From the sequence record PZ166176.1: a stretch of 64,000 bases of DNA. One strand, given 5' to 3'. Of this stretch, positions 4,048 to 30,146 are shown piece by piece (the stretch's first letter is position 1; every line of letters begins with the position of its first letter). This DNA comes from a phage. The notes below the pieces were generated by a model. It saw only the letters and a list, made by a program, of their open reading frames with translations, ran no database searches and was not told the origin of the DNA. The translations under genes and the position numbers were made by a program.

Positions 4048-4143
4048 ATGATTAATAAAGAAAATAGCTTGACGGTTGGAACGATTAACGCTATCATTTT
4101 CGCCGTTCCATTTTGGGTTGTAGTAGCGGCTATTATTTTCTAA
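4048..4143 (+). CDS. 31-aa hydrophobic micro-protein (predicted single transmembrane helix)
   Basis: MINKENSLTVGTINAIIFAVPFWVVVAAIIF; SD caagagg 7 nt upstream; below the track length cut-off. Confidence 0.45.
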   Translation: MINKENSLTVGTINAIIFAVPFWVVVAAIIF

Positions 4144-4153
4144 AAAAATATTC

Positions 4154-4214
4154 TTGACAACGTTTTTTAATCTGATAAGATGTATCACATAGGGCGGCGG
4201 AATACTTCCCCGCC
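4154..4214 (+). promoter_or_regulatory. PeSL-like cassette
   Basis: TTGACA 4154-4159; same promoter sequence as the 2715 copy; hairpin gggcggcggaatacttccccgcc. Confidence 0.7.
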
Positions 4215-4235
4215 AAAACAAAAAAGGGTAACACA

Positions 4236-4598
4236 ATGAGCAAGCAAATCAATACTATCATGTTTAATCTGGTATCTTTCCGCGACGATATGAAAAATTT
4301 ACCACGTGAAACGGTTGATATTCATGTTTCAGCTTATCGCGCCCTTATTGATATGTTACCGCTAAAACGTGATCAACATGCCGCTAATATGATGCTTAAC
4401 GCTATGCTTAAAAAGATGATTCAAACGGATCTCACCCTGGCATATGAGTATCAAGGGTGCTTATATGCAACTTACAACAAGGCGGTACCTGGTCTGGGAA
4501 GTACCGAAGAATTGCACGGCTTAAACCTGGATCAAAACACTTGGGATAGTATGCGCCGCGTTATGGTATGGGCCGAAAGCGGTAAAATTTACGAATAA
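4236..4598 (+). CDS. hypothetical early protein (120 aa)
   Basis: ORF after cassette. Confidence 0.65.
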   Translation: MSKQINTIMFNLVSFRDDMKNLPRETVDIHVSAYRALIDMLPLKRDQHAANMMLNAMLKKMIQTDLTLAYEYQGCLYATYNKAVPGLGSTEELHGLNLDQNTWDSMRRVMVWAESGKIYE

Positions 4599-4604
4599 AA
4601 ACGG

Positions 4605-4664
4605 TTGACACTGTTTAAACTTCTGGTATAGTTTACCACATAGGGCGGGAAGTGGTTTCCCGCC
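4605..4664 (+). promoter_or_regulatory. PeSL-like cassette
   Basis: TTGACA 4605-4610, TATAGT -10, hairpin tagggcgggaagtggtttcccgcc 4641-4664. Confidence 0.7.
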
Positions 4665-4668
4665 AACA

Positions 4669-5052
4669 ATGAAAAAGGTTATCATCATGGCTATTAATAT
4701 TAATGTTTCCGCTTATGCTACCCTGGCTGACACGGCTAAAATTGAATTATCCAGCATTGAGGTGGTGCATATTAGCGCCCGTCGCTGGTTTCAACAGTCC
4801 TACGGTAACACATATTTTTCTTTAATGGTTGACGTTGAGATCGGCGGTAAACTGATCGAGGTGGTTAACGTTCCGTTTCAATATGGTTATGGTGATCATT
4901 TTGATACCGTCGCCCTGGAAGAATTTAGCAAGGTTGTTAATATGGAAGGCAAAGAGTTTTCACGCGGCGCGTATCTTTCCCGTTTTTGCCGTGACAATGG
5001 GATCACTGTATACAGTCATGCAAGCGATGTAAAACGTAAAAAAGATTTATAA
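4669..5052 (+). CDS. hypothetical early protein (127 aa)
   Basis: ORF after cassette; an alternative ATG at 4687 has the better SD. Confidence 0.6.
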   Translation: MKKVIIMAININVSAYATLADTAKIELSSIEVVHISARRWFQQSYGNTYFSLMVDVEIGGKLIEVVNVPFQYGYGDHFDTVALEEFSKVVNMEGKEFSRGAYLSRFCRDNGITVYSHASDVKRKKDL

Positions 5053-5058
5053 AAAGCA

Positions 5059-5118
5059 TTGACAGCAGGAAGAAAAAGCGTAAAATGTTTTATATCGAGA
5101 GCGGGAATAGTTCCCGCC
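5059..5118 (+). promoter_or_regulatory. PeSL-like cassette
   Basis: TTGACA 5059-5064, taaaat -10, hairpin gcgggaatagttcccgc 5101-5117. Confidence 0.65.
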
Positions 5119-5141
5119 TCACTGAAAAAGAGAGAAAAATC

Positions 5142-5381
5142 ATGGCTAAATCTAAAATGTATAACGGTCACAAAAATAAAACTCACTGGAATGTAAGCCT
5201 TTGGATTAATAACGATGAATCATTATACCGTTTGGCCCAAGATTTTATTAACGCTAATGCTAATCGTAATGATGCGGCGCGGGATATGATGCTTTTTCTG
5301 GAACAAACTGGACAAGATAAAACGCCTGACGGTTTCAAATATAGCACTACTGCGATCCGCGCCGCGATGGTTGGAATGTAA
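5142..5381 (+). CDS. hypothetical early protein (79 aa)
   Basis: ATG 5142 with SD agagag; the track start at 5085 would read through the hairpin. Confidence 0.6.
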   Translation: MAKSKMYNGHKNKTHWNVSLWINNDESLYRLAQDFINANANRNDAARDMMLFLEQTGQDKTPDGFKYSTTAIRAAMVGM

Positions 5382-5390
5382 TAAAAACAG

Positions 5391-5450
5391 TTGACAACGT
5401 TTAAAATTAGTGTAAGATGTATCACATAGGGCGGGAAGTGGTTTCCCGCC
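5391..5450 (+). promoter_or_regulatory. PeSL-like cassette
   Basis: TTGACA 5391-5396, taagat -10, hairpin 5427-5450. Confidence 0.7.
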
Positions 5451-5472
5451 AACAACAGAGAGATTAAAGAGT

Positions 5473-5700
5473 ATGGCTATCAATATTGTTCGCGTATCCG
5501 GCACCGTTGGCACTTCCCAGGTTATTGCAGTTGTAACAAACAAAAAGATTAATGATGCATGTGAAAGCTTGAATAAGTGGGCTATTGCTAATTTTGGGGA
5601 ATATGCAAGCGTCGAGTACATCGAATCCTACCAGGTGCCAACCATCAGCCTAACCGATCTCAACGTTGATCGCCTGTTATGCCTGGATGAATTAATCTGA
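5473..5700 (+). CDS. hypothetical early protein (75 aa)
   Basis: ORF after cassette. Confidence 0.65.
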   Translation: MAINIVRVSGTVGTSQVIAVVTNKKINDACESLNKWAIANFGEYASVEYIESYQVPTISLTDLNVDRLLCLDELI

Positions 5701-5708
5701 AAAAGATT

Positions 5709-5767
5709 GTTGACACGGGAAAGAAAAAGAGTAAACTGTATTACGTAGGGCGGCAATGGTGCCGCTC
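5709..5767 (+). promoter_or_regulatory. PeSL-like cassette
   Basis: TTGACA 5709-5714, hairpin gtagggcggcaatggtgccgc. Confidence 0.7.
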
Positions 5768-5790
5768 ACAACAGAAGAGAGATTATTACG

Positions 5791-6003
5791 ATGGCTAATA
5801 TCCGCACACTGTTAAAAAATGCAAGTCAAGTTTTATTTTCAGATGACGAGTATTTCAATAAAGACATTACAGGCGTGAAGAATATCAAAGATGTAAAAAG
5901 TGTTATGGGTATATATTGCAATGTTAAACGTGTTGGAACGTTCGGTGATAAAGTATTGTACCAATCAGGTGATTACAATTTTACTTTGACGATTATTTCA
6001 TAA
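5791..6003 (+). CDS. hypothetical early protein (70 aa)
   Basis: ORF after cassette. Confidence 0.65.
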   Translation: MANIRTLLKNASQVLFSDDEYFNKDITGVKNIKDVKSVMGIYCNVKRVGTFGDKVLYQSGDYNFTLTIIS

Positions 6004-6007
6004 AACG

Positions 6008-6070
6008 CTTGCAATACTGCAAAAATAAAGTAAACTGTATTACATCAAGGCGGCGGAATGGTCCACCGCC
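6008..6070 (+). promoter_or_regulatory. PeSL-like cassette (variant -35 CTTGCA)
   Basis: hairpin aaggcggcggaatggtccaccgcc 6047-6070. Confidence 0.6.
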
Positions 6071-6094
6071 TAAGAAAGAGAAGAGGAAAATATC

Positions 6095-6262
6095 ATGATC
6101 ACTTTCGCTACCCGTGAAGCCGCTCGCAACGTTGCACGTAAAGTTAACGCCGCCAACCTGGGCGCTACTTTTAAAGCCCCGGTGAAAGATGAATCAGGCA
6201 AATGGATCTTCCCTGGTCTGCGTCACGCTGATAAGCTAGGCACTTTAAGCCTTAAAAAATAA
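6095..6262 (+). CDS. 55-aa basic small protein
   Basis: MITFATREAARNVARKVNAANLGATFKAPVKDESGKWIFPGLRHADKLGTLSLKK; SD aagagg; below the track cut-off. Confidence 0.5.
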   Translation: MITFATREAARNVARKVNAANLGATFKAPVKDESGKWIFPGLRHADKLGTLSLKK

Positions 6263-6264
6263 TC

Positions 6265-6303
6265 GTTGACTTTTCGTTATAGCGCCTTATAATGGGCGCT
6301 ATA
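6265..6303 (+). promoter_or_regulatory. promoter plus variant stem-loop
   Basis: TTGACT 6265-6270, hairpin tatagcgcc-ttataatg-ggcgctata. Confidence 0.5.
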
Positions 6304-6336
6304 GAGAAGAGAAACCACTACTAACAAGGAAACATC

Positions 6337-6558
6337 ATGATCACTTTCGCTATTGTCGCCGTTGTCGCTGGTCAAGTTTACGTAAATGAGACATTTACTA
6401 CAGAAGACAAGGCCGCAGGAGACATAACCGCCGTTTACAATGAGTGCAAGGCAGTAGAAAGGATGTTAGCGCCTTGTATGTTAATGAGTGAACGCCAGGA
6501 CGGGATAACAGTGTTTACTAACATTGAGACAGGGTACCAAATGGTAGTAACAAAATAA
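6337..6558 (+). CDS. hypothetical early protein (73 aa)
   Basis: ORF; shares N-terminal MITFA with the 6095 ORF. Confidence 0.6.
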   Translation: MITFAIVAVVAGQVYVNETFTTEDKAAGDITAVYNECKAVERMLAPCMLMSERQDGITVFTNIETGYQMVVTK

Positions 6559-6561
6559 AGC

Positions 6562-6619
6562 TTGACACGGATTTAATTTTCAGTAAACTGTTACACGTAG
6601 GGCGGGAATAGTTCCCGCT
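6562..6619 (+). promoter_or_regulatory. PeSL-like cassette
   Basis: TTGACA 6562-6567, hairpin gtagggcgggaatagttcccgc. Confidence 0.7.
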
Positions 6620-6636
6620 AAAAAGAGAGAAAGACC

Positions 6637-6990
6637 ATGAAAGCACAAAATGCAATTAAAGAGTACATCCTTGCCGCTATCGATTTTAATGATTACGGTA
6701 TTACAACCGAAAAAGAGAAGATCGCGGAATTGATGCGCCGTTTTAATTCCGAGTACTGGTACCCTGATAACCAATCACGTTTTAATTATAGTATTGTTAA
6801 AGCACTTGCATCATGGTTACAAGGTTTGCCATCAAATATCAATATCGCTTTCGAATATTGGGAAATTGATCGTTTGTTAACATCCTGGGGATACATTAAA
6901 GAGAATAGCAGCGATGATAAAATCCAACGAGAAAGGGAAAATTATTGGCTTTATATTGCAGGCGTGATCCTTGCTTGCTCTTATGAATGA
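6637..6990 (+). CDS. hypothetical early protein (117 aa)
   Basis: ORF after cassette. Confidence 0.65.
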   Translation: MKAQNAIKEYILAAIDFNDYGITTEKEKIAELMRRFNSEYWYPDNQSRFNYSIVKALASWLQGLPSNINIAFEYWEIDRLLTSWGYIKENSSDDKIQRERENYWLYIAGVILACSYE

Positions 6991-6996
6991 TAAACC

Positions 6997-7052
6997 TTGA
7001 CAATTTTACAAAACAGTTTAAATTAACAATATAGCGGCAATGGTGCCGCTCA
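6997..7052 (+). promoter_or_regulatory. PeSL-like cassette
   Basis: TTGACA 6997-7002, hairpin atagcggcaatggtgccgct. Confidence 0.65.
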
Positions 7053-7069
7053 TATGAAGAGGAAACAAA

Positions 7070-7216
7070 ATGAATACATCTAATCGCGCAGAAAAAATTC
7101 AATCTTCCAAGATCCGCAAGGCCTGGAACGAGGAAGTGATCCGCAAAGGCGACAAGCGCAATAAAACAAAGCGCGGGAAGAGTGACAAATATAATTGGAT
7201 GGATTTAGAGGATTAA
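7070..7216 (+). CDS. 48-aa lysine/arginine-rich small protein
   Basis: MNTSNRAEKIQSSKIRKAWNEEVIRKGDKRNKTKRGKSDKYNWMDLED; SD agaggaaac; followed by a terminator. Confidence 0.5.
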   Translation: MNTSNRAEKIQSSKIRKAWNEEVIRKGDKRNKTKRGKSDKYNWMDLED

Positions 7217-7223
7217 CATAACA

Positions 7224-7250
7224 AGGGCGCACCAAGCGCCCTTTCTTTTT
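7224..7250 (+). terminator. rho-independent terminator (GGGCGCACCAAGCGCCC family)
   Basis: agggcgcaccaagcgccct plus ttctttttt; the same hairpin recurs at 12701 and 13265. Confidence 0.7.
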
Positions 7251-7271
7251 ACATGTAGAGGATAAACAAAA

Positions 7272-7457
7272 ATGACTTTAAACGAGCTTAAAACAGCCTA
7301 CAGCACAACATTAAAAATAGCCGTGCGCTACCGTGACGAATACGGTTTTATTGCGCAGGGCGTGATCCTGGGCTTTTCTGACGATGGTTTGATCTATGTT
7401 GATGCACATCATAACAAGGTAAAACCTGAAAACGTCATTAGCATAAAATATCTTTAA
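7272..7457 (+). CDS. hypothetical early protein (61 aa)
   Basis: ORF with SD gaggat. Confidence 0.55.
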   Translation: MTLNELKTAYSTTLKIAVRYRDEYGFIAQGVILGFSDDGLIYVDAHHNKVKPENVISIKYL

Positions 7458-7463
7458 AAGTGG

Positions 7464-7523
7464 TTGACACCATAACTGGACCTGTTAAACTGTATTACAT
7501 CAGGCGGGGAATAGTTCTCCACC
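7464..7523 (+). promoter_or_regulatory. PeSL-like cassette (degenerate hairpin)
   Basis: TTGACA 7464-7469, hairpin caggcggggaatagttctccacc. Confidence 0.55.
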
Positions 7524-7542
7524 ATACAAAAAGGTAAATATT

Positions 7543-7749
7543 ATGATCACCGCAAAACAAGAGAAAATCATTATCGACGTTGCAGCCGTTGCCGCTATTG
7601 CTATTATTGGATCTTATTATGATACCCGTTTCCCGTCGGCTATGCATGAGGTCGCCGCCGTTGCATCAGTTGGCGTACTGTTTTACGTTGGTAAACGCTA
7701 TTTATCACCAATGATTAACAAGCTGACACCGTGGAAAAATAAAGGTTGA
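7543..7749 (+). CDS. hypothetical membrane protein (68 aa)
   Basis: Two hydrophobic stretches (AAVAAIAIIGSYY, AAVASVGVLFYVG). Confidence 0.6.
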   Translation: MITAKQEKIIIDVAAVAAIAIIGSYYDTRFPSAMHEVAAVASVGVLFYVGKRYLSPMINKLTPWKNKG

Positions 7750-7800
7750 TCCTGTTTTATATTGTGTTATAGTTATCGTGTAGGGCGGCAATGGTGCCGT
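7746..7800 (+). promoter_or_regulatory. PeSL-like cassette (variant -35 TTGATC)
   Basis: hairpin gtagggcggcaatggtgccg 7779-7800. Confidence 0.55.
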
Positions 7801-7820
7801 GCCCCTTTGAGGATGCAATC

Positions 7821-8105
7821 ATGAGTAAAGCTAACACCGTGCTAATGTTTTCCCTGATTAATGATCTCGCTTACTTGTCCAACATGACGCAGGAGGGTAA
7901 CACATTAACGGCAACATTCACCAATAAGCTTGACCGAGTGATCATCATCTCACTGAAAACAGTTAGTAAAGGCTTTTACTCGTTAGCTTATCATTGGATC
8001 ACCGATACCAATGAGACAAGCCAGGACTATAGCGCCCCTTTCCCTGAATCAATGGCACGGGAGATCATCGCCGCCGTTGTAAATGATGGTTTGTTTACTG
8101 AATAA
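7821..8105 (+). CDS. hypothetical early protein (94 aa)
   Basis: ATG 7821 with SD gaggatg; the track start at 7791 lies inside the hairpin. Confidence 0.6.
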   Translation: MSKANTVLMFSLINDLAYLSNMTQEGNTLTATFTNKLDRVIIISLKTVSKGFYSLAYHWITDTNETSQDYSAPFPESMAREIIAAVVNDGLFTE

Positions 8106-8123
8106 AATAATTTAGAAAAAGGC

Positions 8124-8180
8124 TTGCAATCATTTTGAGATAGTGTATATTTAATTCATAGGGCGGCGGGAATAGTTCCC
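8124..8180 (+). promoter_or_regulatory. PeSL-like cassette
   Basis: -35 TTGCAA, hairpin catagggcggcgggaatagttccc. Confidence 0.6.
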
Positions 8181-8203
8181 AAAGCAAACGAGAGGATTAC
8201 ACG

Positions 8204-8323
8204 ATGAGCAAGTACACAGTAGAATACACGGTAGAAAATCCGGCAGTATCCGAAGGTAAAAAGATGACATTTGCCATCAGTATAATCGCTTTCGTTGTCA
8301 CTATCTTATCAATCATGTTATAA
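8204..8323 (+). CDS. 39-aa micro-protein with C-terminal transmembrane helix
   Basis: MSKYTVEYTVENPAVSEGKKMTFAISIIAFVVTILSIML; SD agagga. Confidence 0.45.
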   Translation: MSKYTVEYTVENPAVSEGKKMTFAISIIAFVVTILSIML

Positions 8324-8333
8324 GGTGCACACC

Positions 8334-8495
8334 ATGAAAACAACAGACATTATCAAAGAGATCGCCCTTGCCGCTGGCGTTGAAGTCGAGGAAGTGATCG
8401 CGCTCAATCTTACAGAAAAAGATCTGCGCAACTATGAAGCGGAAAGCGTGAAAGCAAGCGGCGCGGTCCTGGTATATGATCCGGCTAACAAGTAA
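8334..8495 (+). CDS. hypothetical early protein (53 aa)
   Basis: ATG 8334 (MKTTDIIKEIAL...) after SD aaggtg; the track start at 8295 overlaps the upstream micro-ORF. Confidence 0.5.
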   Translation: MKTTDIIKEIALAAGVEVEEVIALNLTEKDLRNYEAESVKASGAVLVYDPANK

Positions 8496-8504
8496 GGGGA
8501 TAAC

Positions 8505-8615
8505 ATGAATCCGAAAGATATGCAAGCATGGAAAGGGTACGACGATCTAAGCGCCTTGCGCAATAAGTCAAGCCGTAACCTTAGACGGTTGGAAGCAAAG
8601 AAAAAGAAAAAATAG
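8505..8615 (+). CDS. 36-aa basic small protein
   Basis: MNPKDMQAWKGYDDLSALRNKSSRNLRRLEAKKKKK; SD aagggga. Confidence 0.4.
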   Translation: MNPKDMQAWKGYDDLSALRNKSSRNLRRLEAKKKKK

Positions 8616-8675
8616 TTTGACAAGTCCGCCTAGTCTGATAATATGTATCTTGTAGGGCGGCAATGGTGCCGCTCA
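8616..8675 (+). promoter_or_regulatory. PeSL-like cassette
   Basis: TTGACA 8616-8621, hairpin tgtagggcggcaatggtgccgctc. Confidence 0.7.
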
Positions 8676-8693
8676 CAAGAAGAGAGAAAAATC

Positions 8694-8978
8694 ATGAAAA
8701 TCACAAAAAGCCTAACTAATTATGCAGCACGTCGCGGATTATGTTTAACCGTTGAAAACTTAGGGAAAGAAGACTTTTTGTGTTTTTGGGAGCTTGAAAA
8801 TGATTGCGAGTGGATGTTTTCTTATTCTATCTGCGAAGATCAAAACGGTTGTTTGTTAACCTGGCGCGGTAATATCTATTTACCGGAAGAAATTAAAGAA
8901 GAGTTACCAGGTACGATCATGACAGAGAGACAGCTTAAGGAAATGATTAATTTTGTAGGGCAAAACATTAAAAAATAA
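8694..8978 (+). CDS. hypothetical early protein (94 aa)
   Basis: ATG 8694 with SD agagag; the track start at 8643 reads through the hairpin. Confidence 0.6.
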   Translation: MKITKSLTNYAARRGLCLTVENLGKEDFLCFWELENDCEWMFSYSICEDQNGCLLTWRGNIYLPEEIKEELPGTIMTERQLKEMINFVGQNIKK

Positions 8979-9040
8979 TTTGACAGCACGCAAACAACGT
9001 AGTAAAGTTTACCACATAGGGCGGCGGAATGGTCCACCGC
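8979..9040 (+). promoter_or_regulatory. PeSL-like cassette
   Basis: TTGACA 8979-8984, hairpin identical to the 2751 copy. Confidence 0.7.
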
Positions 9041-9063
9041 TCACAACAGAAGAGAAACAAATC

Positions 9064-9234
9064 ATGATCCCGACTATGTTTTATGTATCGCGCAAAGGTC
9101 ACAATATTTTTTGGTCTGAAGATTTAAACGAAGCTATGACGTTTGCCCGTGATCGTGTTGCTATCGGTGGCGTTAACATCACCGTAACCGATGAAAACGG
9201 CATTGAATACTATAACGGCGACGATGAAGAGTAA
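9064..9234 (+). CDS. hypothetical early protein (56 aa)
   Basis: ATG 9064 (MIPTMFYVSRKG...) with SD agagaaac. Confidence 0.55.
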   Translation: MIPTMFYVSRKGHNIFWSEDLNEAMTFARDRVAIGGVNITVTDENGIEYYNGDDEE

Positions 9235-9240
9235 TTAATG

Positions 9241-9263
9241 AGGCGGGGAGTATTCCCCGCCGT
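9241..9263 (+). other. stand-alone GC stem-loop with no promoter upstream
   Basis: gaggcggggagtattccccgccg immediately before the SD of ORF 9281. Confidence 0.5.
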
Positions 9264-9280
9264 CAATAAAGAGGTAAATC

Positions 9281-9550
9281 ATGAAAATATCATTGGACGT
9301 TGCAATCAAGGCCATCGAATCCGGTTACATCCTGGTAAAAGATGATAAGGCTAAAATAGTGCATCATGTTAACAAGGAAACAGGCGAAAGCATGATCACA
9401 TATAAAGCCGCCTATTTTCTCCAATCAGTAGCAGATCCGCGCGTACAACGCCAGGTTACGGCGGCTATTGCTAAAAAATTGTGTTCCTTGCAGGGTGCAA
9501 GTTTTAACGAGATCCCGCCGTGTTTTGAGTGGTCAAGCTTGAAAAAATAA
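9281..9550 (+). CDS. hypothetical early protein (89 aa)
   Basis: ORF with SD agaggt. Confidence 0.65.
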   Translation: MKISLDVAIKAIESGYILVKDDKAKIVHHVNKETGESMITYKAAYFLQSVADPRVQRQVTAAIAKKLCSLQGASFNEIPPCFEWSSLKK

Positions 9551-9551
9551 T

Positions 9552-9613
9552 TTGACAACAATTATAAATCGGGTAGAATGTATTTCGTAGGGCGGGGCAA
9601 TAAGGCAACGCCC
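9552..9613 (+). promoter_or_regulatory. PeSL-like cassette
   Basis: TTGACA 9552-9557, hairpin tagggcggggcaataaggcaacgccc. Confidence 0.65.
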
Positions 9614-9631
9614 ATTAATGAGGGTAGAATC

Positions 9632-9736
9632 ATGTTAGAGAAAATTTTCACGGTTGTAATAGTGGGCCTGGCGTTATCGGTTGGAGTGGTTGCAACTATG
9701 GCTAACATGATCCTATCTTCCCACGGTATCGGTTAA
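9632..9736 (+). CDS. 34-aa hydrophobic micro-protein
   Basis: MLEKIFTVVIVGLALSVGVVATMANMILSSHGIG; SD gagggtag. Confidence 0.45.
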   Translation: MLEKIFTVVIVGLALSVGVVATMANMILSSHGIG

Positions 9737-9737
9737 G

Positions 9738-9962
9738 GTGAAACAAATGATCACGAACAAAACAGGCAAAACGGAATTTTTACGCGGCTTACAAGTTGGT
9801 AAGCCTGAGATCTGGCATTGCACGAAGTCCGCGCATAATGAAATGAAAGATTTTACCGCTACTTTACAACGTGTTAAAATATCTATCACACAGAAAAAAG
9901 CCTTGTTAGTAGTAGAAAACGAGATCCCGCAAACTATTATTATTGTCGAGCGTACAGCATGA
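9738..9962 (+). CDS. hypothetical early protein (74 aa)
   Basis: ORF with SD aaggtgaaac. Confidence 0.6.
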   Translation: MKQMITNKTGKTEFLRGLQVGKPEIWHCTKSAHNEMKDFTATLQRVKISITQKKALLVVENEIPQTIIIVERTA

Positions 9963-10345
9963 AAACAGAAATCATTATTGAAATCATCAACGGCTATAAA
10001 GAAGCCTTTATTTTTGCTGAATCAGCAAGGGATCATGAAGGTAATTTTATTGATAACTTAGACGATTATGATTTTTCTCCTAGCGCAGATCAACGGATCG
10101 CCCAGGATGTAACAGCCTTTATTAATGCTAATCTTGCCGCTATCTCTGAGGCAATGAGCGACGGCGCAACAGCCAACCAGATCGGGAATGATTTACATTT
10201 TACCCGTAACGGTCACGGCGTAGGCTTTTGGGATCGCCCTGAAATATACACCACTAACACAGCCAACCGCCTAACCAATGCAGCTAAGTTTATGCCGAAC
10301 GTGTCGGCTTACATTGGTGAAGATAATTTGATTTATATTGAATAA
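9959..10345 (+). CDS. hypothetical early protein (128 aa)
   Basis: Start overlaps the upstream stop (ATGA coupling). Confidence 0.65.
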   Translation: MKTEIIIEIINGYKEAFIFAESARDHEGNFIDNLDDYDFSPSADQRIAQDVTAFINANLAAISEAMSDGATANQIGNDLHFTRNGHGVGFWDRPEIYTTNTANRLTNAAKFMPNVSAYIGEDNLIYIE

Positions 10346-10351
10346 AAAGTA

Positions 10352-10410
10352 TTGACACAGATCGCCAGTGTGCTAATATTTACCACGTAGGGCGGCAATG
10401 GTGCCGCTCC
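10352..10410 (+). promoter_or_regulatory. PeSL-like cassette
   Basis: TTGACA 10352-10357, -10 taatat, hairpin gtagggcggcaatggtgccgctc. Confidence 0.7.
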
Positions 10411-10428
10411 CCGAAAAAGGTAAACATT

Positions 10429-10620
10429 ATGAAAACCATCTCCTACCTGGAATCGAATAACATGTTTTTTGCGCCCGTTGATGAAATCATCGAAGCATTA
10501 AACAACGAGGAAGGGATCAAAGGTTTATCTTATAGCCAACTTTTAGGAATGGTTGCAGCAAATGAAGAGCTTGCTTACTATGTTGAAAATTTTGATGAAG
10601 CTGTAATCTTTACAAAATAA
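10429..10620 (+). CDS. hypothetical early protein (63 aa)
   Basis: ORF after cassette. Confidence 0.65.
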   Translation: MKTISYLESNNMFFAPVDEIIEALNNEEGIKGLSYSQLLGMVAANEELAYYVENFDEAVIFTK

Positions 10621-10622
10621 TC

Positions 10623-10680
10623 CTTGATCTAATCTCTTAGATAACTTATATTTAATGCGTAGGGCGGCAATGGTGCCGCC
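10623..10680 (+). promoter_or_regulatory. PeSL-like cassette (variant -35 CTTGAT)
   Basis: hairpin gtagggcggcaatggtgccgcc. Confidence 0.55.
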
Positions 10681-23589: not shown

Positions 23590-23802
23590 ATGAAGGCACA
23601 TTACCCTCATCCCTTTGATCCTAAAAACAAAGCCGTAATTCTTCGTCAGTGGCAACGGGTTTGTCGTACTAAATGTCCAATCAATAGCCCACACAATGTA
23701 AACAAGGACTATCTTGGGACATTTGTTGAATACACTTACATAGACAAAAACAAGCGTAAACAACATGTCGAGGAATACTGCTTAAGAGTAGAATGGCTGT
23801 AA
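23590..23802 (+). CDS. hypothetical early protein (70 aa)
   Basis: Overlap-coupled ORF. Confidence 0.6.
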   Translation: MKAHYPHPFDPKNKAVILRQWQRVCRTKCPINSPHNVNKDYLGTFVEYTYIDKNKRKQHVEEYCLRVEWL

Positions 23803-23814
23803 ATAATAAATACC

Positions 23815-23845
23815 TTGACAAGTGTTTATTCGTTTTGTAAAGTGA
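23815..23845 (+). promoter_or_regulatory. sigma70-like promoter upstream of the recombinase gene
   Basis: ttgacaagtgtttattcgttttgtaaagt. Confidence 0.45.
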
Positions 23846-23872
23846 GAATACAGCAATAGTTTAGGAGTGGTT

Positions 23873-24544
23873 ATGAAAAAGTTTGTTGTTTACAGTCGTC
23901 TTTCTAAACAGAAAAAAGGTGAGGCACAATATGGTATGGAGAGCCAAGAGAACGATATTCGTTACTTCTTAGACTCTGTGCCTGATGCTGAAGTTATTGG
24001 TCAATTTTCTGAATACTATTCGGGTAAGGGCGATTGGAAGCAACGTAAGGAACTGGTCAAAGCGGTTGAAATGTGTAAAGCTACCGGAGCAACTTTATTG
24101 GTAGCTAAAGTTGACCGCTTGGGTCGTAACAACGCCTCCGTAGCAACTCTTCTAGAAATGATCGATGTTAAGATAGCCATTATGCCAGACGCAGATAAAA
24201 TGGTTATACAGCTTCTGTCTGTTCTGGCTGAACAAGAAGTTAGAGGTATTGCTGATCGTATTAAAAAGGGTCTTGCTGTAGCAAAAAGCAAAGGTGTTTT
24301 ATTAGGTAGTGCTAATCCTAAAACTGCCGCTGCACGTAGAAAAGGAAAAATGGAATACAACTCTGTTAAAGCAGACGCTTTTGCAGAGACATTCCGTGAA
24401 CGTTTGGAGATCCTTAGAGATTTAAATACACCTTACAAAACTATTGCTGAAAAATTCAATAGTAAGAAAATAGCAACAGCACGTGGTGGTAAATGGGATG
24501 CTAAAACTGTTTCTCGTTTGTGTGCCAGACTTAACATTAAATAG
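23873..24544 (+). CDS. serine recombinase (resolvase/invertase catalytic domain)
   Basis: VYSRLSKQ (catalytic Ser region), LLVAKVDRLGRN, LLSVLAEQEVRGIADRIKKGLAVAKSKG resemble the Gin/Hin/TnpR catalytic domain; C-terminal GGKWDAKTVSRL resembles the recombinase domain of large serine recombinases. Confidence 0.75.
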   Translation: MKKFVVYSRLSKQKKGEAQYGMESQENDIRYFLDSVPDAEVIGQFSEYYSGKGDWKQRKELVKAVEMCKATGATLLVAKVDRLGRNNASVATLLEMIDVKIAIMPDADKMVIQLLSVLAEQEVRGIADRIKKGLAVAKSKGVLLGSANPKTAAARRKGKMEYNSVKADAFAETFRERLEILRDLNTPYKTIAEKFNSKKIATARGGKWDAKTVSRLCARLNIK

Positions 24545-24552
24545 GAGAGGAT

Positions 24553-24975
24553 ATGAAACAAGAAAATGAATCTGTAGATCACTTAATCATGCTGTCAGCC
24601 CTTTTTGCAGGATGGGACGTATTTTTTGAAAATTTGTTCAATTCTGCTACAGATGGTTCCGATTTTATGCGCCAATTTAAACAACGAACTGTTGAGGACT
24701 ATACCTTCTATTCAGGTCTGATTGAAAAAGGTTACGAAGATACAAATACAACACTCACCATTAAAGTTTTAGATGTGATGTTTAGTGTTATAGATGCTAT
24801 CGACGAAAGTCTTCCGATCCTAGACAATTGTAATACGAAAGTTTATGTTTACAAAATAGCTCGTGCTTATGTGTCTGCAAACAGTTGTCTTCTTTCCACC
24901 CAGATTGCCGTGAACAATCTTGCCAACTTGTTTGATGAAGGAGAAACTTTTTATGACAATCGATTTGAAGTGTAA
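24553..24975 (+). CDS. hypothetical early protein (140 aa)
   Basis: SD ataggagagg. Confidence 0.65.
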   Translation: MKQENESVDHLIMLSALFAGWDVFFENLFNSATDGSDFMRQFKQRTVEDYTFYSGLIEKGYEDTNTTLTIKVLDVMFSVIDAIDESLPILDNCNTKVYVYKIARAYVSANSCLLSTQIAVNNLANLFDEGETFYDNRFEV

Positions 24976-25318
24976 GAGGATTCTTTTAGATTTCTATAAT
25001 AATTGGTTAGAACACCTCCGTCTCTTTCCAAGAGAAAGTGGTTACGCTGATGTTGGCTTATGCCGAGGTCTGCGTATGTATATAAGTGATGAATTTCGGG
25101 CAGAGCATTCTTTAGCATATTCTGTTTATGGTATGCAATTAGCCAGTTTTGAAAACGCTGGCTTAGATACAACTTTCCCATTTAACACAGCAAAATCTTT
25201 TGAGCAAGAGTGTAAGGAAAAACGTTGCATGTTTAATGAAAAACGTGTACAGTGGGTTAAGGATCAAGTTAAACAACTGGAACAAGAGTTGGATTTCTTC
25301 TATGATGAGGCAGAATAA
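24953..25318 (+). CDS. member D of the five-copy paralogous early family
   Basis: ATG 24953 with SD gaaggag; LDFYNNWLEH...GLCRGL...FPFN...RVQWVKD. Confidence 0.65.
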   Translation: MTIDLKCKRILLDFYNNWLEHLRLFPRESGYADVGLCRGLRMYISDEFRAEHSLAYSVYGMQLASFENAGLDTTFPFNTAKSFEQECKEKRCMFNEKRVQWVKDQVKQLEQELDFFYDEAE

Positions 25319-25590
25319 TGGATAGACAAACCTTAAAAACAATGGCAGATGCCACTAATTCCCCGTACTTTGAAAAAGTAAGTAAATTGGTAGCTCAAGC
25401 CGCAGAGGAAGGATATTATAACATAAACATCCACAACCCAAGTCTTATACTAGAAATGCCAAGTGATAAGAAGATACAAGAGAGTATCTGTGAAGGTATT
25501 GTTAGTTACTGGCGCGAGCGTGGGTGTGGTGCAAACATGGCTTTAGACAGTGCAAACATTGTAAGATATATAAATATTTCTTGGGGGTGA
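25318..25590 (+). CDS. hypothetical early protein (90 aa)
   Basis: Overlap-coupled ORF. Confidence 0.6.
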   Translation: MDRQTLKTMADATNSPYFEKVSKLVAQAAEEGYYNINIHNPSLILEMPSDKKIQESICEGIVSYWRERGCGANMALDSANIVRYINISWG

Positions 25591-25594
25591 TTTT

Positions 25595-26206
25595 ATGATT
25601 CAATGCACTCATATCCAAATTACTTGGAGAGATGAACTTTACCATTTGGGGCAATTTACTGTAGGGGAAACATACCCTATCATTAAACATAATCCTAACA
25701 TCGCAAACTTTGACAGGATGGTTCTTGTTGAGGACGATCTAGGTCAAACTTATTCTTTAGATCTAAAATATCCGTTTTCTTACGGCTACGATTGGATCGT
25801 TACTTTTGAAGACGCGGAGGAAAATAAAACAATGAACGAAAAAAATTCTTGGTATTATCGTTGTGAACTGCCGCCAGTAGGTGAAAAGGTTATCTTTGTT
25901 CCTGATTTGGAAAGATATTCTTGGGACAGTTCTTATTCTATTCCTAAAGAAGGAACAGAAGTTGAAGTTATTGCACATCGCACAACTTCGCATGGTAACG
26001 ATGTAGCAGTTGTTTTCTGGGATGATGAAGGCGCTGCTTGTGCAGGTGGCTTTGTTGCAGGTAATTTTGAACCCCTGCCAGATCCTTTGAAGGAGGCAAT
26101 TTTAGGCGTAGCTTCTTTTGGACTCTCTTACACATCTGCACAAGAGATTGTAGAAGGTATTTTAAACGGTACCGTTCCAAACGAAATTTTTAAACAGATT
26201 AAATAA
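25595..26206 (+). CDS. hypothetical early protein (203 aa)
   Basis: SD ttgggggtga. Confidence 0.65.
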   Translation: MIQCTHIQITWRDELYHLGQFTVGETYPIIKHNPNIANFDRMVLVEDDLGQTYSLDLKYPFSYGYDWIVTFEDAEENKTMNEKNSWYYRCELPPVGEKVIFVPDLERYSWDSSYSIPKEGTEVEVIAHRTTSHGNDVAVVFWDDEGAACAGGFVAGNFEPLPDPLKEAILGVASFGLSYTSAQEIVEGILNGTVPNEIFKQIK

Positions 26207-26257
26207 TAGTTGCACCCCGTTCTGCGGGGTGTTATTGTATATGTAAAGGAGGCGCTA

Positions 26258-26596
26258 ATGTATTACACTGAAGACTACATACTGTATAACTTTTTTAAAG
26301 GCTGGTTGAAATGGGCTGAACAAGCTCCTGTCGGAGATTGTGTTTTTCCTTGGGATTCTCGTCAAGGTTTGTGTCGTTGTTTGGAAGATTGGCTTATAAC
26401 CACAAACTACAATTCAGAAACTAAGAAATCTACATCAAATCGATTAAAAATGTTGTTTGAAGAAGATGGTTTAGATCCAATTTATCCTTTCGGTGAGGAA
26501 AGTTTCCACAATGGTCTTTTCCTTGGCACTCAACATTATGATAAAGATCGTGTAGATTGGGTAAAAGAAAAGGTAGCACAGTATGAATGGGGTTAA
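26258..26596 (+). CDS. member E of the five-copy paralogous early family
   Basis: ATG 26258 with SD aaaggaggcg; FFKGWLKWAEQAP...GLCRCL...YPFG...RVDWVKE; hairpin caccccgttctgcggggtg upstream. Confidence 0.65.
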   Translation: MYYTEDYILYNFFKGWLKWAEQAPVGDCVFPWDSRQGLCRCLEDWLITTNYNSETKKSTSNRLKMLFEEDGLDPIYPFGEESFHNGLFLGTQHYDKDRVDWVKEKVAQYEWG

Positions 26597-26786
26597 GAAT
26601 TATCACCGCTGGTTAGAAAGCTATCTTAAGAAATGTGAACTTGGTGTTCCAGGTTATACTTACGACACGGACGAGATCCTTGATGAAATGGAAGTTTGGT
26701 TTAAAGAGCCTCGTGAACTATTGGAAAACATTCTAATGGCTTGGGATGGTACGGCACAAAGCATTGAAGGAGGTAGAAATGAGTAA
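26583..26786 (+). CDS. hypothetical early protein (67 aa)
   Basis: Overlap-coupled ORF. Confidence 0.55.
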   Translation: MNGVKNYHRWLESYLKKCELGVPGYTYDTDEILDEMEVWFKEPRELLENILMAWDGTAQSIEGGRNE

Positions 26787-26913
26787 GAAATTGTTTAATA
26801 TTCGTGAGAACCGTGATGGATCGTTCTCTGTAGTCAATGAGTTTAACGTTTCGGTTGGGACTTTTATTACTAAACGTCAAGCAGAACAAGTAAGAGATAC
26901 TTTAAACAAGTAA
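26779..26913 (+). CDS. 44-aa small protein
   Basis: MSKKLFNIRENRDGSFSVVNEF...; SD gaaggaggtag. Confidence 0.45.
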   Translation: MSKKLFNIRENRDGSFSVVNEFNVSVGTFITKRQAEQVRDTLNK

Positions 26914-26930
26914 ATTTTTAAGGGGGACTT

Positions 26931-27350
26931 ATGTTAGGTAAGATCAAAGCCTTTTTCAAACGTATTATCGAAGGAAGTCCAACAGAAGGTGCATTAGGAA
27001 GATCCCTAACAGGAGAACCACTTGCCATAATTTCTATCAGTCGGCATGGTGGATATTCCATTCGACAAACACCTTTAGGTATAAAAGGTAGTATGCTTTC
27101 TTGGACAATATCTCAAGTTGGTGATAACAGGCTTGCAGCTATAGCGTTACTTCGTGGGGAGTATGACTACTGTTTATCAGCATCTTCTAAAAAGCACCTC
27201 ATAGAGCACATTAGAGACAGAGTAGAAAGAGAAGGCGGATACTTCTTCGAAACTAAGAGAAACGAACAAGGAACTCTTGACTTCACTAAGGTTTACTGGG
27301 ACAATCATACTCGTCAAACTGTTGAACAACTTCTGGAGGAAAGATGTTAA
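26931..27350 (+). CDS. hypothetical early protein (139 aa)
   Basis: SD ttaaggggga. Confidence 0.65.
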   Translation: MLGKIKAFFKRIIEGSPTEGALGRSLTGEPLAIISISRHGGYSIRQTPLGIKGSMLSWTISQVGDNRLAAIALLRGEYDYCLSASSKKHLIEHIRDRVEREGGYFFETKRNEQGTLDFTKVYWDNHTRQTVEQLLEERC

Positions 27351-27553
27351 AAGCTTTTGCTGTATACTCTACTGTAGGATTCTTTTATTGGATTATAGTT
27401 GTTGTTGGATGTTGGTTGGGTTCTTCTGTTGTGATGGGAGAATGGTTAACATACAATGTATTTGAATGGGATGTAGTTTGTAGATCATTACTTGTTATAT
27501 GGACTGCTATTGTTTGTTGGATAACTGTTAGTCTAACATTAGATCTATATTGA
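27344..27553 (+). CDS. small membrane protein (69 aa)
   Basis: Two hydrophobic helices, Trp-rich. Confidence 0.6.
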   Translation: MLKAFAVYSTVGFFYWIIVVVGCWLGSSVVMGEWLTYNVFEWDVVCRSLLVIWTAIVCWITVSLTLDLY

Positions 27554-27720
27554 TTAATAGATGGTAGATAGATGATCATAGTTTATCTACCTTCACTTAC
27601 GTTTCATACCTCACTATCGTGAGTAACATGAAACATTATTATATAGAAATCTACTACTCGCTATCGCTCGTAAACATATGTTTAGGGTACCATATTTTTT
27701 TGAAAAAGTCAATGCTGATT

Positions 27721-27810
27721 CACCTATCAATTATCTGTTTAAGATAAGTCTTACCTATCAATCTAAGTCTTAATTAGTATTGCACCTATAGTAAGACTAT
27801 TCCTATAGTT
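27721..27810. repeat. four iteron-like direct repeats (CCTATCAAT/CCTATAGT core)
   Basis: cacctatcaat (27721), tacctatcaat (27752), gcacctatagt (27782), ttcctatagtt (27801). Confidence 0.5.
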
Positions 27811-27845
27811 ATTAACCCTCTTCTTCTGTAGAATGTAATTAGATC

Positions 27846-27876
27846 CTTGACAAACTCACAAAACTTGTGTTACATT
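27846..27876 (+). promoter_or_regulatory. sigma70-like promoter
   Basis: ttgacaaactcacaaaacttgtgttacatt. Confidence 0.4.
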
Positions 27877-27913
27877 GTGTCTCACAGGTGAATAATACCG
27901 AACAGGAGGAAGA

Positions 27914-28129
27914 ATGAGTTCCAATTTTCTATACAAAGCAAAAGATTCACGAGATGGAGAGAACCATTGGTGGTTGATCACAGAAGATGGTGTTATCATC
28001 CTACCGTGGGACGGAGAGACGAAAGTTCAAATATTAGAGAAAGTAAAAGGTGTTAGTTTTAATGTTAGTCATGACATAACAACTTTCAAAGCTTTTGCTA
28101 TGAATCCTAATCTTGTTGCTGAATGGTAA
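27914..28129 (+). CDS. hypothetical early protein (71 aa)
   Basis: SD aacaggaggaag. Confidence 0.65.
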   Translation: MSSNFLYKAKDSRDGENHWWLITEDGVIILPWDGETKVQILEKVKGVSFNVSHDITTFKAFAMNPNLVAEW

Positions 28130-28142
28130 TCCAGGAGAAAAT

Positions 28143-28361
28143 ATGACTAAAATGTATGCAGCCGTTGATAAGCTGGATGGGTCTGATTCTGTTTTTATTT
28201 TGAATAAAATGGGTGTCTTAGTTTATGCCCGAACTTCTCAAAACATAGAACACCAAGTGGAAGCAGCACAAATTTTAGAGCAAATAACCCCTCCATACCT
28301 ATACTCAAATGTTGAGCGTTTTAACGATGCACTTGGTTTGACGTTAATAGCGGAATGGTAA
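28143..28361 (+). CDS. hypothetical early protein (72 aa)
   Basis: ATG 28143 with SD ccaggag. Confidence 0.6.
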   Translation: MTKMYAAVDKLDGSDSVFILNKMGVLVYARTSQNIEHQVEAAQILEQITPPYLYSNVERFNDALGLTLIAEW

Positions 28362-28561
28362 TAATGGCGAAAATGTTGGAAATTGATAATGTCGTAACAA
28401 TCACTACGTCCATACCTTGCCATCCTATGCCTTGCCCCTATTGTGGTGGTGCAGGATATGTTATGGCGGATGTAGGTCAAATTTACGAGTGTAACCCGTG
28501 CAAAACCACAGGTTATATCGAAATAGAATCAGAGGAGAAACACTATGAGCCAAAACGCTAA
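28355..28561 (+). CDS. small zinc-ribbon-like protein (68 aa)
   Basis: CPYCGG...CNPCKTTG pairs. Confidence 0.6.
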   Translation: MVIMAKMLEIDNVVTITTSIPCHPMPCPYCGGAGYVMADVGQIYECNPCKTTGYIEIESEEKHYEPKR

Positions 28562-28994
28562 AGAAAAAGAAGTAATCACGGTAATCCGTCAGATGGAAGG
28601 TGCCGAAAACAATGCTTTTGTTACTAAGATTCTTCTTAATATCTTTGAAGATATTATTTTAAACAATCCTGGTCATAAAGATTATCAGTATGATGTTATG
28701 ATGGGTGCTTTGCTTGAGATTAACAAAAACACTTTTGCTGAATATGAGCAACACATGCTTTTACCAGAGGAAGATCAGGATTATTTGTTATCTGGTGCTT
28801 TAAGTGCACAAGAAAATTTCTACCACGTTCTTAATATGGCTTATGCAGATGAACTTGCTGTTTCCCTTGAAGAGCGTATTCAAATGGTTCGTGATGTGAT
28901 GAATGAACAAATCCAAGAAGTTGAAGACTTGGTGGCAGAACCTTTAGCAGAAATTCGTGCAGCTATTGAAAAACAAAAAGGAACTCAATCATGA
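28545..28994 (+). CDS. hypothetical early protein (149 aa)
   Basis: Overlap-coupled ORF. Confidence 0.65.
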   Translation: MSQNAKEKEVITVIRQMEGAENNAFVTKILLNIFEDIILNNPGHKDYQYDVMMGALLEINKNTFAEYEQHMLLPEEDQDYLLSGALSAQENFYHVLNMAYADELAVSLEERIQMVRDVMNEQIQEVEDLVAEPLAEIRAAIEKQKGTQS

Positions 28995-29158
28995 TGCAAG
29001 TAGGTGATGTGGTTTGTCTTAAAGGTGCAAACAAACAAATGACAGTAATAGAAAGTTATGGTGAATCTTGTAAAGTAACTTGGTTCGATGAAAACGGGGA
29101 ATTGCAACACGCCATATTCGATCAAAAAGCTTTGAGGAAGGTTGAAGAAAAAGAATGA
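28991..29158 (+). CDS. 55-aa small protein, DUF2158/YodC-like
   Basis: MMQVGDVVCLKGANKQMTVIES...CKVTWFDENGEL fits my recollection of the GDVV-LKSGGP-MTV pattern of that family; below the track cut-off. Confidence 0.45.
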   Translation: MMQVGDVVCLKGANKQMTVIESYGESCKVTWFDENGELQHAIFDQKALRKVEEKE

Positions 29159-29418
29159 GACATCCGCCAATATTTTTCTGTTTTGTCGATCTTGAAAACG
29201 AGTCTTTAATCGTTGATAGTGAGGGTTACTTCACTTATTGGGAATCCGAGCACGAAACTATAAGTGTAGTGAAAGAAATTATGCAAACCAATCCAAATCT
29301 ACCAGCGCATAAGTACGGTATTGCAAAAGTGTTTGTTACTAAAACAGAGTACACAAAAGAGCGAAGCACTTTGTACCATAATATTGAAGTGATTCACTAT
29401 TTCAAAGATGTTATTTAG
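29155..29418 (+). CDS. hypothetical early protein (87 aa)
   Basis: Overlap-coupled ORF. Confidence 0.6.
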   Translation: MRHPPIFFCFVDLENESLIVDSEGYFTYWESEHETISVVKEIMQTNPNLPAHKYGIAKVFVTKTEYTKERSTLYHNIEVIHYFKDVI

Positions 29419-29426
29419 GAGGTTAT

Positions 29427-30035
29427 ATGGAAGAGAAGATTTGGGATGGTAAAGATCCTTTAGAAGTTGGACACGTAGCGCGTGTCAAAAAATCTACTAC
29501 AGGTCCTGGTTTTTCTGGTTTGTATCATATACCAGAAGAAGGTCAGCACGTTACAATTTTGGCTCGTGACAAACAAAACGGAGCAACGCCTGTGTGGATT
29601 GTTCGTTGGTATGACAAAGATCTTAACATTTGCTTGTCACCTATTATGGCTCATTTGCTGGAAGCCCCTTGCTCTGAAGAAGCTCTAATTTTTGTTTCAG
29701 CTTTTCAGAAAGCCACAGGTTTAACATTAGATGCAAAAGATGTGCAAAAAGCATTTGACATTATTCAGGAAGACAACGATACTACATCTAACGACGAACT
29801 GGTTGAAGTTACAATCTTATCTTCAGCAGATATCCGAGAGATTGATAATTGTGATTTTCCAATCACATTTAAAATGTCGCAGAAAGACATACAGTCATCT
29901 GGAAGTTGTTTTGGTATACCTCGTTGGTTTTTTGATTCTATCAAAAATTCTACTACAGAGGGATCAGACTATGATCAAGATGACATGCTTTGGTTCTTAA
30001 AAAACCGAGAGATTGTTCTCTCACCACTTAAATAA
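29427..30035 (+). CDS. hypothetical early protein (202 aa)
   Basis: SD ttaggagg. Confidence 0.65.
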   Translation: MEEKIWDGKDPLEVGHVARVKKSTTGPGFSGLYHIPEEGQHVTILARDKQNGATPVWIVRWYDKDLNICLSPIMAHLLEAPCSEEALIFVSAFQKATGLTLDAKDVQKAFDIIQEDNDTTSNDELVEVTILSSADIREIDNCDFPITFKMSQKDIQSSGSCFGIPRWFFDSIKNSTTEGSDYDQDDMLWFLKNREIVLSPLK

Positions 30036-30044
30036 GGAGAAATA

Positions 30045-30146
30045 ATGGTTTCATTTATCGTAGGTGTAGTTGTAGGCTATCTTATTAACAAATATCAAGA
30101 CGTTATCACGGCAAAAGTAAAAGACATTTTAGACTCATCTAAATAA
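30045..30146 (+). CDS. 33-aa hydrophobic micro-protein
   Basis: MVSFIVGVVVGYLINKYQDVITAKVKDILDSSK; SD aaggagaaat. Confidence 0.45.
   Translation: MVSFIVGVVVGYLINKYQDVITAKVKDILDSSK

Follow-up and report, generated by a model that had tools for sequence, protein, structure and literature searches.

Eleven small open reading frames between the longer genes of a Phapecoctavirus show conservation and amino acid constraint

Results

We analyzed a window of 64,000 nucleotides (nt) of phage DNA (sequence record PZ166176.1) in which eleven open reading frames (ORFs) of 31 to 57 codons, named here by their start positions, lie between positions 4048 and 30146. A sequence-only reading had proposed them as unannotated micro-protein genes fitting between longer genes, and all eleven were found on the + strand where it had placed them and with the starts it had given. 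A systematic scan of the + strand gaps (1-31500) for stand-alone ORFs of 20 to 59 amino acids (aa) with an ATG and a Shine-Dalgarno sequence (SD) returned precisely this set plus one ORF of 22 aa. The ORFs fall into two modules, at about 2750-12700 and 14868-30146. The first holds ORFs 4048 (4048-4143; 31 aa, MINKENSLTVGTINAIIFAVPFWVVVAAIIF), 6095 (6095-6262; 55 aa), 7070 (7070-7216; 48 aa), 8204 (8204-8323; 39 aa), 8505 (8505-8615; 36 aa), 9632 (9632-9736; 34 aa), and 11622 (11622-11756; 44 aa). The second contains ORFs 21502 (21502-21675; 57 aa), 26779 (26779-26913; 44 aa), 28991 (28991-29158; 55 aa), and 30045 (30045-30146; 33 aa), set among tightly packed, overlapping or nearly abutting genes.

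When 4000-12500 and 3900-28800 were compared with GenBank phages by Megablast, the matches to Phapecoctavirus genomes, among them Mt1B1_P17, ESCO13, P3322, and nepoznato, were 93 to 97% identical and largely collinear, and the closest GenBank phage record was 97 to 98% identical. Justusliebigvirus and Vequintavirus gave patchy matches of 82 to 90% in the same searches. These matches assign the stretch to Phapecoctavirus, the phAPEC8-like Escherichia coli myoviruses of about 150 kilobases (kb). Our comparisons rest on GenBank phage records; IMG/VR scans with two neighboring proteins returned one locus and none. Near-identical genomes have also been deposited as phages of Campylobacter (B15, 97%), Pseudomonas (PsgM04F), Acinetobacter (ABPW7), and Klebsiella (ZCKP1), host labels that, for members of a coliphage lineage, look doubtful or due to contaminating phages.

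Using the stop-codon frequency of about 0.064 expected in this base composition, we estimated a probability of 0.02 to 0.13 that any one of the ORFs would stay open by length alone. Length by itself is thus weak evidence of coding, and it is conservation that lifts the ORFs above chance. In local tblastn searches of ten fetched relatives, every peptide was recovered, always from an unbroken ORF that keeps the ATG start and varies little in length; the relatives with matches include Phapecoctavirus genomes, PsgM04F, one IMG/VR contig, Justusliebigvirus, and Vequintavirus. Seven ORFs (4048, 6095, 7070, 8204, 9632, 28991, and 30045) reach Justusliebigvirus at 37 to 97% aa identity, and ORFs 9632 and 11622 are also present in Vequintavirus.

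We then compared substitutions by pairwise Nei-Gojobori counts. Pooled ratios of nonsynonymous to synonymous differences (pN/pS) were 0.13 to 0.50 for the ORFs, lowest (0.13) for ORF 6095, versus 0.04 to 0.26 for seven neighboring long genes, so that the two ranges overlap. Variable sites were predominantly third codon positions, and the +1 and +2 frames contained 6 to 73 stops, with ratios mostly near or above 1. For each ORF, the single most divergent pair was also subjected to a one-sided Fisher test. The p values ran from 4e-14 to 0.04 for the ten ORFs other than 4048. The strongest signals came from ORFs 26779 (p=4e-14; pS 0.96 versus pN 0.19), 7070 (p=8e-7 against Justusliebigvirus; pS 0.89 versus pN 0.32), 21502 (p=1e-6), 8505 (p=2e-5; pS 0.53 versus pN 0.07), and 28991 (p=1e-4; 48 to 100% aa identity). 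ORF 9632 gave p=0.0015 with the divergent Vequintavirus allele of RudolfGeigy (65% nt identity; pS 0.62, pN 0.26), and ORFs 30045 (58 to 100% aa identity), 6095, and 8204 (37 to 97% aa identity) gave p values of 0.002, 0.003, and 0.005, respectively. For ORF 11622 (66 to 100% aa identity), p was 0.022, and 0.0012 against RudolfGeigy. ORF 4048 was intact in nine relatives (70 to 97% aa identity), and its comparison with relative L004 showed differences at 12.7 of 21.2 synonymous sites versus 11.3 of 71.8 nonsynonymous sites (ratio 0.26). Conservation and synonymous constraint had been put forward as a check on the proposed genes, and the check came out in their favor: the frames were kept in relatives, with amino acid constraint in the range given above. 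Together with the intact frames, these substitution patterns show that all eleven ORFs are real coding genes whose aa sequences are maintained by purifying selection.

The features immediately upstream of the ORFs bear on where translation begins. A purine-rich SD (GAGG, GAGGA, AAGG, AGGAG, or AGGAGG) lies 4 to 8 nt before ten of the eleven starts, with GAGG for ORFs 4048 and 9632 and AGGAGG for ORF 26779, and the SDs were kept even where the upstream context diverges among relatives. The good SDs ascribed to the whole set are therefore borne out for ten ORFs and not for ORF 11622, which has none and starts 2 nt past the stop of the upstream gene 11335-11619 (TAA-CC-ATG). Longer frames were possible for four ORFs, and we rejected each of the alternative starts. 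For ORF 4048, the start at 4009 lies within the leader hairpin and has no SD. For ORF 9632, the ATG at 9578 falls inside the -10 hexamer, which argues that 9632 is the true start. The alternatives for ORFs 21502 (21499) and 26779 (26746) are not conserved or lack an SD: position 21499 begins a GTG in relatives, and relatives annotate the start of ORF 26779 that follows its AGGAGG.

The description of these genes as unannotated is true only against the 60-aa cutoff of the ORF list behind it. When we placed tblastn coordinates on the feature tables of relatives, every ORF proved to be an annotated coding sequence (CDS) in at least one GenBank relative, with CDSs 70 to 100% identical. ORFs 6095, 21502, 26779, 28991, and 30045 are annotated in all relatives that carry them, including ORF 28991 in six of six, ORF 26779 in L003, L004, and L008, and ORF 21502 as a 174-nt CDS in phage EF1-1; ORF 30045 was found in 127 phage records and is nearly always annotated. 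Annotation is patchy for ORFs 9632, 4048, 8204, 8505, and 11622. ORF 9632 carries no annotation in L001, L003, L007, or phAPEC8, and the feature is absent in about half of the matches listed (228 records). ORF 4048, matched in 108 phage records, is unannotated in about a third of the matches listed with annotation. ORF 8204 is labeled "membrane protein" in L001, L002, and L004, and in PaulScherrer and cardinal a different overlapping frame is annotated instead. ORF 8505 is annotated in phAPEC8 (phAPEC8_007), L001, L002, and L004, and neither it nor ORF 11622 is annotated in P3322.

Profile searches gave a similar picture. Full-length hmmscan matches to PHROG families were obtained for ten of the eleven ORFs (E values of 1e-12 to about 1e-38), and for most of them the profile has the same length as the peptide. 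The families are phrog_13689 (ORF 6095), phrog_2490 (7070), phrog_10979 (8204), phrog_31652 (8505), phrog_14631 (9632), phrog_16005 (11622), phrog_25207 (21502), phrog_27860 (26779), phrog_3261 (28991), and phrog_11666 (30045). ORF 4048 had no match in PHROG v4 or Pfam as the 31-aa peptide, nor in PHROG as its 44-aa extended version, and NCBIfam returned only subthreshold noise for the ORFs. Public databases already list these proteins as hypothetical and as members of PHROG (ten ORFs) or Pfam (two ORFs) families, so that neither their kind nor the individual proteins are new. The same proteins are found as hypothetical-protein CDSs in genomes of Phapecoctavirus, Justusliebigvirus, and Vequintavirus, the only differences being the lack of a PHROG family for ORF 4048 and the patchy annotation.

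Throughout the first module, genes follow copies of a promoter/hairpin cassette. We located 18 copies within 2751-12322, all on the + strand (for example, 3962-4047, 6997-7069, and 9552-9631). Each consists, in order, of an AT-rich tract, TTGACA or a close variant, 16 to 17 nt, TAnnnT, about 7 nt, a (T)AGGGCGG...CCGCC hairpin (motif TAGGGCGG...CCGCC), an SD, and an ATG. The hairpins of all 18 copies have predicted energies of -8 to -16 kcal/mol (z scores of -2 to -4.8), and their stem sequences vary among copies with base pairing kept. The phAPEC8 GenBank record labels the two halves of the cassette "host dependent promoter (MEME)" and "PHIRE promoter"; the latter, GTAGGGCGGCAATGGTGCCG, is the cassette hairpin. 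GC skew marks the + strand as the coding strand to about 31 kb, and because all cassettes and the skew point the same way, we take it to be the transcribed strand. Scans for tRNA genes and Rfam families found none in the window.

Five ORFs are the first or only gene behind a sigma70-type cassette, and the other six are stop/start-coupled to their neighbors. The cassette of ORF 4048 has its -35 element at 3962-3967, its -10 element at 3985-3990, and its hairpin at about 4001-4020; that of ORF 6095 has TTGCAA at 6009-6014, TAAACT at 6031-6036, and a hairpin from about 6048. For ORF 7070, the promoter (6997-7024) and hairpin (7033-7050), together with a hairpin at 7223-7243 that resembles a terminator and precedes a run of T, make a complete monocistronic unit. 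The cassette of ORF 8204 (8124-8151, with a hairpin from about 8163) heads an operon of micro-protein genes only (8204, 8334, and 8505), in which ORF 8505 starts 9 nt past the end of gene 8334-8495 and stops 1 nt short of the following promoter. ORF 9632 follows promoter elements at 9552-9557 and 9574-9579 and a hairpin at 9590-9613. Among the coupled genes, ORF 11622 is the last of a unit closed by a terminator-like hairpin at 11764-11789, the ATG of ORF 21502 overlaps the upstream stop (ATGATG), ORF 26779 overlaps the end of its upstream gene by 8 nt, and ORF 28991 shares ATGA overlaps with both flanking genes.

The nearest described analogue of these cassettes is the PeSL (promoter-early stem-loop) element of T4-type phages (PMC2839356, PMC4122927). 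Both combine a strong sigma70-like promoter and an AT-rich upstream tract with an adjacent GC-rich stem-loop, and PeSLs are likewise repeated between small orphan genes of a variable early region. PeSLs differ in belonging to another phage lineage and in motif sequence. Furthermore, the hairpin described here lies downstream of the -10 element and has no U tract, and thus has the look of an mRNA 5' hairpin and not of a terminator. Similarity breakpoints with relatives fell within 60 nt of cassettes in 40 of 76 cases versus 16.1 +/- 3.5 at random, an excess that is confounded with intergenic location.

We analyzed the hydrophobicity of the peptides, five of which (4048, 8204, 9632, 11622, and 30045) had been described as dominated by a hydrophobic helix. 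That description held for four. ORFs 4048, 8204, 9632, and 11622 each have a helix of transmembrane (TM) grade, with 19-mer Kyte-Doolittle values of 2.48 to 2.59 and a summed Hessa free energy of no more than 0. ORF 30045 is borderline: its hydrophobic N terminus spans 14 residues before a charged amphipathic tail, its best 19-mer scores only 1.19, and it is at most a marginal candidate for a membrane anchor. The TM helix of ORF 4048 is C terminal (2.57). In ORF 8204, the TM segment occupies residues 21 to 39 (2.55) behind a conserved YTVENPAVSEGKK head, an arrangement that suggests a tail-anchored membrane protein, and its family phrog_10979 is described as "membrane protein" in the category moron, auxiliary metabolic gene and host takeover.

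ORF 9632 was found at full length in 228 phage records, in two allele groups (at least 90% and about 50 to 59% identity), and its C-terminal motif ATMAN(M/V)ILSS(H/N)GIG is invariant across Stephanstirmvirinae and Vequintavirinae. Gene callers disagree on its start, giving products of 34 to 84 aa. ORF 11622 is paired with gene 11335-11619, which encodes a 94-aa protein (phrog_9845) with an N terminus, MKKMIAVVALVVGINAPVMA, that we judged by eye to resemble a signal peptide. The pair is kept in Vequintavirus (Mangalyan and RudolfGeigy), and this joint retention suggests that the two may form a two-part envelope module. Searches of Pfam, NCBIfam, and PHROGs revealed no match to a characterized exclusion protein, toxin, takeover protein, or small-membrane-protein family. 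On visual inspection, one or more hydrophobic segments also give a membrane-like look to three slightly larger proteins of the early region, 7543-7749 (68 aa), 23266-23589 (107 aa), and 27344-27553 (69 aa); should these indeed be membrane proteins, products directed to the membrane would be common in the region and not confined to the micro-ORFs.

The remaining six ORFs are strongly charged, with net charges of +7 (6095), +6 (7070), +8 (8505), -15 (21502), +3 (26779), and -3 (28991). Their composition predicts soluble products, to which the membrane idea does not apply. Two of them match Pfam families. ORF 7070 scored 49.8 bits against PF08200 (Phage_1_1; cutoff of 21), with residues 5 to 44 aligned to profile positions 2 to 40 of 40, i.e., 39 of the 40 positions. 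Like the T7 gene 1.1 protein, the 48-aa, +6 product of ORF 7070 is small and very basic; unlike T7 gene 1.1, ORF 7070 belongs to a myovirus of 150 kb, not to a podovirus of the T7 type, and forms a monocistronic unit between a dedicated sigma70-type promoter and a terminator-like hairpin. No function has been assigned to T7 gp1.1 either (PMC7064336). ORF 28991 scored 35.9 bits against PF09926 (DUF2158, YodC-like; cutoff of 22.3) over profile positions 1 to 50 of 50, and differs from other DUF2158/YodC-like proteins in being a phage copy in an overlapping gene string. PDB sequence searches with ORFs 28991 and 7070 gave no match, and we found no solved structure or function for DUF2158.

Deeper searches with some of the ORFs yielded no clue to function. 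The AlphaFold2 model of ORF 6095 (predicted local distance difference test [pLDDT] score of 76) had no PDB match with E<1 and, in BFVD, matched only its own uncharacterized family. A profile of this family compared with 1.84 billion representatives yielded 20 clusters, all but one of them small stand-alone proteins of 53 to 85 aa; it revealed no informative domain fusion, the lone 415-aa match being weak and repetitive. Large-database searches with ORFs 9632 (made with an extended 52-aa frame), 6095, and 21502 returned 14 to 16 clusters each, from the same phage group and equally small. ORF 21502 was modeled as a medium-confidence helical bundle (pLDDT of 71). Its 57 aa, with the tail ...AEAEEDE, make it a short-tail variant in a family whose members usually have 65 aa (...AEDKADRYNYLCR), and the tail difference coincides with a different downstream gene, marking a mosaic junction. 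The short-tail variant is shared with phage EF1-1 and cluster P0035.

Three more genes of fewer than 60 aa are concealed in TTG- or GTG-extended frames of more than 60 aa: 8334-8495 (53 aa; phrog_35944), the middle gene of the micro-protein operon; 9064-9234 (56 aa; phrog_20874), the first gene after its own cassette; and 18593-18769 (58 aa; phrog_22766).

Between the two modules, 1.6 kb (13250-14867) lack any + strand ORF of at least 60 aa and carry multiple copies of AATGATAAYCATTATCAT-type motifs that are similar to the Fur box of E. coli. We counted 17 such sites with at least 13 of 19 matches, versus 1.1 +/- 1.3 in shuffles, and another dense cluster occupies 1632-1700 (16 of 19 matches at 1690). 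Justusliebigvirus genomes have clusters at equivalent positions despite only 70 to 80% identity of the surrounding DNA. These clusters could serve in Fur binding or titration, or could form an iteron-type origin.

Discussion

Taken as a whole, our analyses make it highly probable that the eleven ORFs are conserved genes, presumably expressed early and putatively serving as accessory factors in host takeover. In the mechanism that we propose, host RNA polymerase would transcribe the ORFs directly after infection, and the anatomy of the cassette suggests that its hairpin would form the 5' end of the mRNA. Among the products, three classes may be distinguished: (a) membrane peptides of the single-pass type (4048, 8204, 9632, 11622, and possibly 30045); (b) peptides with a strong basic charge (6095, 7070, and 8505); and (c) acidic or small globular proteins (21502, 26779, and 28991). 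Our committed guess is that they would be nonessential accessories to host takeover, binding larger host proteins and modulating them, with class (a) targeting inner-membrane proteins and class (b) nucleic acids or acidic partners.

Several considerations weigh against this account. The early timing is suggested by promoter consensus only, and no promoters were mapped for 21502-30146. The functional classes are drawn from composition, not from homology to characterized proteins. With regard to coding, our pooled tests draw repeatedly on related genomes, which exaggerates their significance. The case is weakest for ORF 4048, whose most divergent single pair (L010) fell short of significance (p=0.18), and ORF 9632 has near-invariant DNA in most genomes, which leaves only the divergent Vequintavirus allele informative. 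We found no ribosome-profiling, transcript, proteomic, or functional study of the micro-proteins of these phages in our literature searches.

If the ORFs were not genes at all, they would be chance open frames in spacers or gene fragments broken by cassette insertion. The estimated 2 to 13% chance per ORF of staying open and the behavior of gene callers, which often skip these ORFs and give discordant starts (as for ORF 9632), would fit such an origin. We nevertheless regard it as most improbable: all ORFs are intact in every relative examined and bear selection signatures, the PHROG profiles are mostly of the same length, and the searches with ORFs 6095, 9632, and 21502 found equally small proteins and no longer parent gene. 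It is also improbable, if slightly less so, that part of the set serves for regulation, as upstream ORFs or as coupling ORFs for which translation itself matters and not the peptide. ORFs 8204, 8505, 9632, 11622, 21502, 26779, and 28991 do overlap or lie within 10 nt of a neighbor's start or stop, and ORF 11622, having no SD, must depend on coupling. However, a purely regulatory ORF should tolerate nonsynonymous change, and a regulatory role is therefore disfavored by the amino acid constraint (pN/pS and third-position bias), the conserved lengths, and the motifs that persist at 37 to 60% identity across genera.

As for what the hydrophobic peptides do, small single-TM regulators (AcrZ, MgrB, and MgtS) and phage exclusion or takeover peptides (T4 Imm/Sp and T7 gp0.4) are precedents that resemble the membrane peptides in size (31 to 44 aa here), in a single hydrophobic helix, and in early or accessory context; they share no sequence similarity with them. 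In line with the suggestion of the sequence-only reading, it is possible, though we consider it doubtful, that the hydrophobic micro-proteins enter the host inner membrane early in infection and there bind host membrane proteins (transporters or components of division or respiration) or block DNA entry by superinfecting phages. The TM-grade helices of four ORFs, the dedicated sigma70-type cassettes of 4048, 8204, and 9632, the host-takeover category of the ORF 8204 family, the invariant ORF 9632 motif across two phage subfamilies, and the retention of ORF 11622 as a coupled pair with its signal-peptide-like partner are consistent with such a function. Against it stand the lack of a match to any characterized family in the databases searched, the borderline hydrophobicity of ORF 30045, and the nonmembrane character of six of the eleven products. 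A narrower version, which we consider rather unlikely, is that the four or five membrane micro-proteins, each encoded on or beside a mobile cassette, act early and specifically to inhibit or modulate conserved inner-membrane proteins of E. coli, with ORF 9632 as the prime candidate, or that 11335-11619 and ORF 11622 constitute a two-part envelope module such as one for superinfection exclusion.

For annotation practice, our findings mean that, over 26 kb of the phage studied here, roughly a dozen genuine genes are concealed by a 60-aa ORF cutoff. The smallest genes are inconsistently annotated in public records, with ORF 9632 unannotated even in the type phage phAPEC8, and the promoter/hairpin cassette offers a reliable signpost of true start codons. 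The old question of what gp1.1 does gains one modest piece of information, namely that a myovirus carries a homologue equipped with a promoter and a terminator-like hairpin of its own.

Overall, under our preferred account of conserved accessory genes, the ORFs would be typical early orphan genes of large lytic phages and candidates for host-takeover screens, with no pointer to a new mechanism. If the membrane peptides do prove to be specific early inhibitors or an exclusion module, either finding would add new families to the exclusion factors or "protein antibiotics" of phages.

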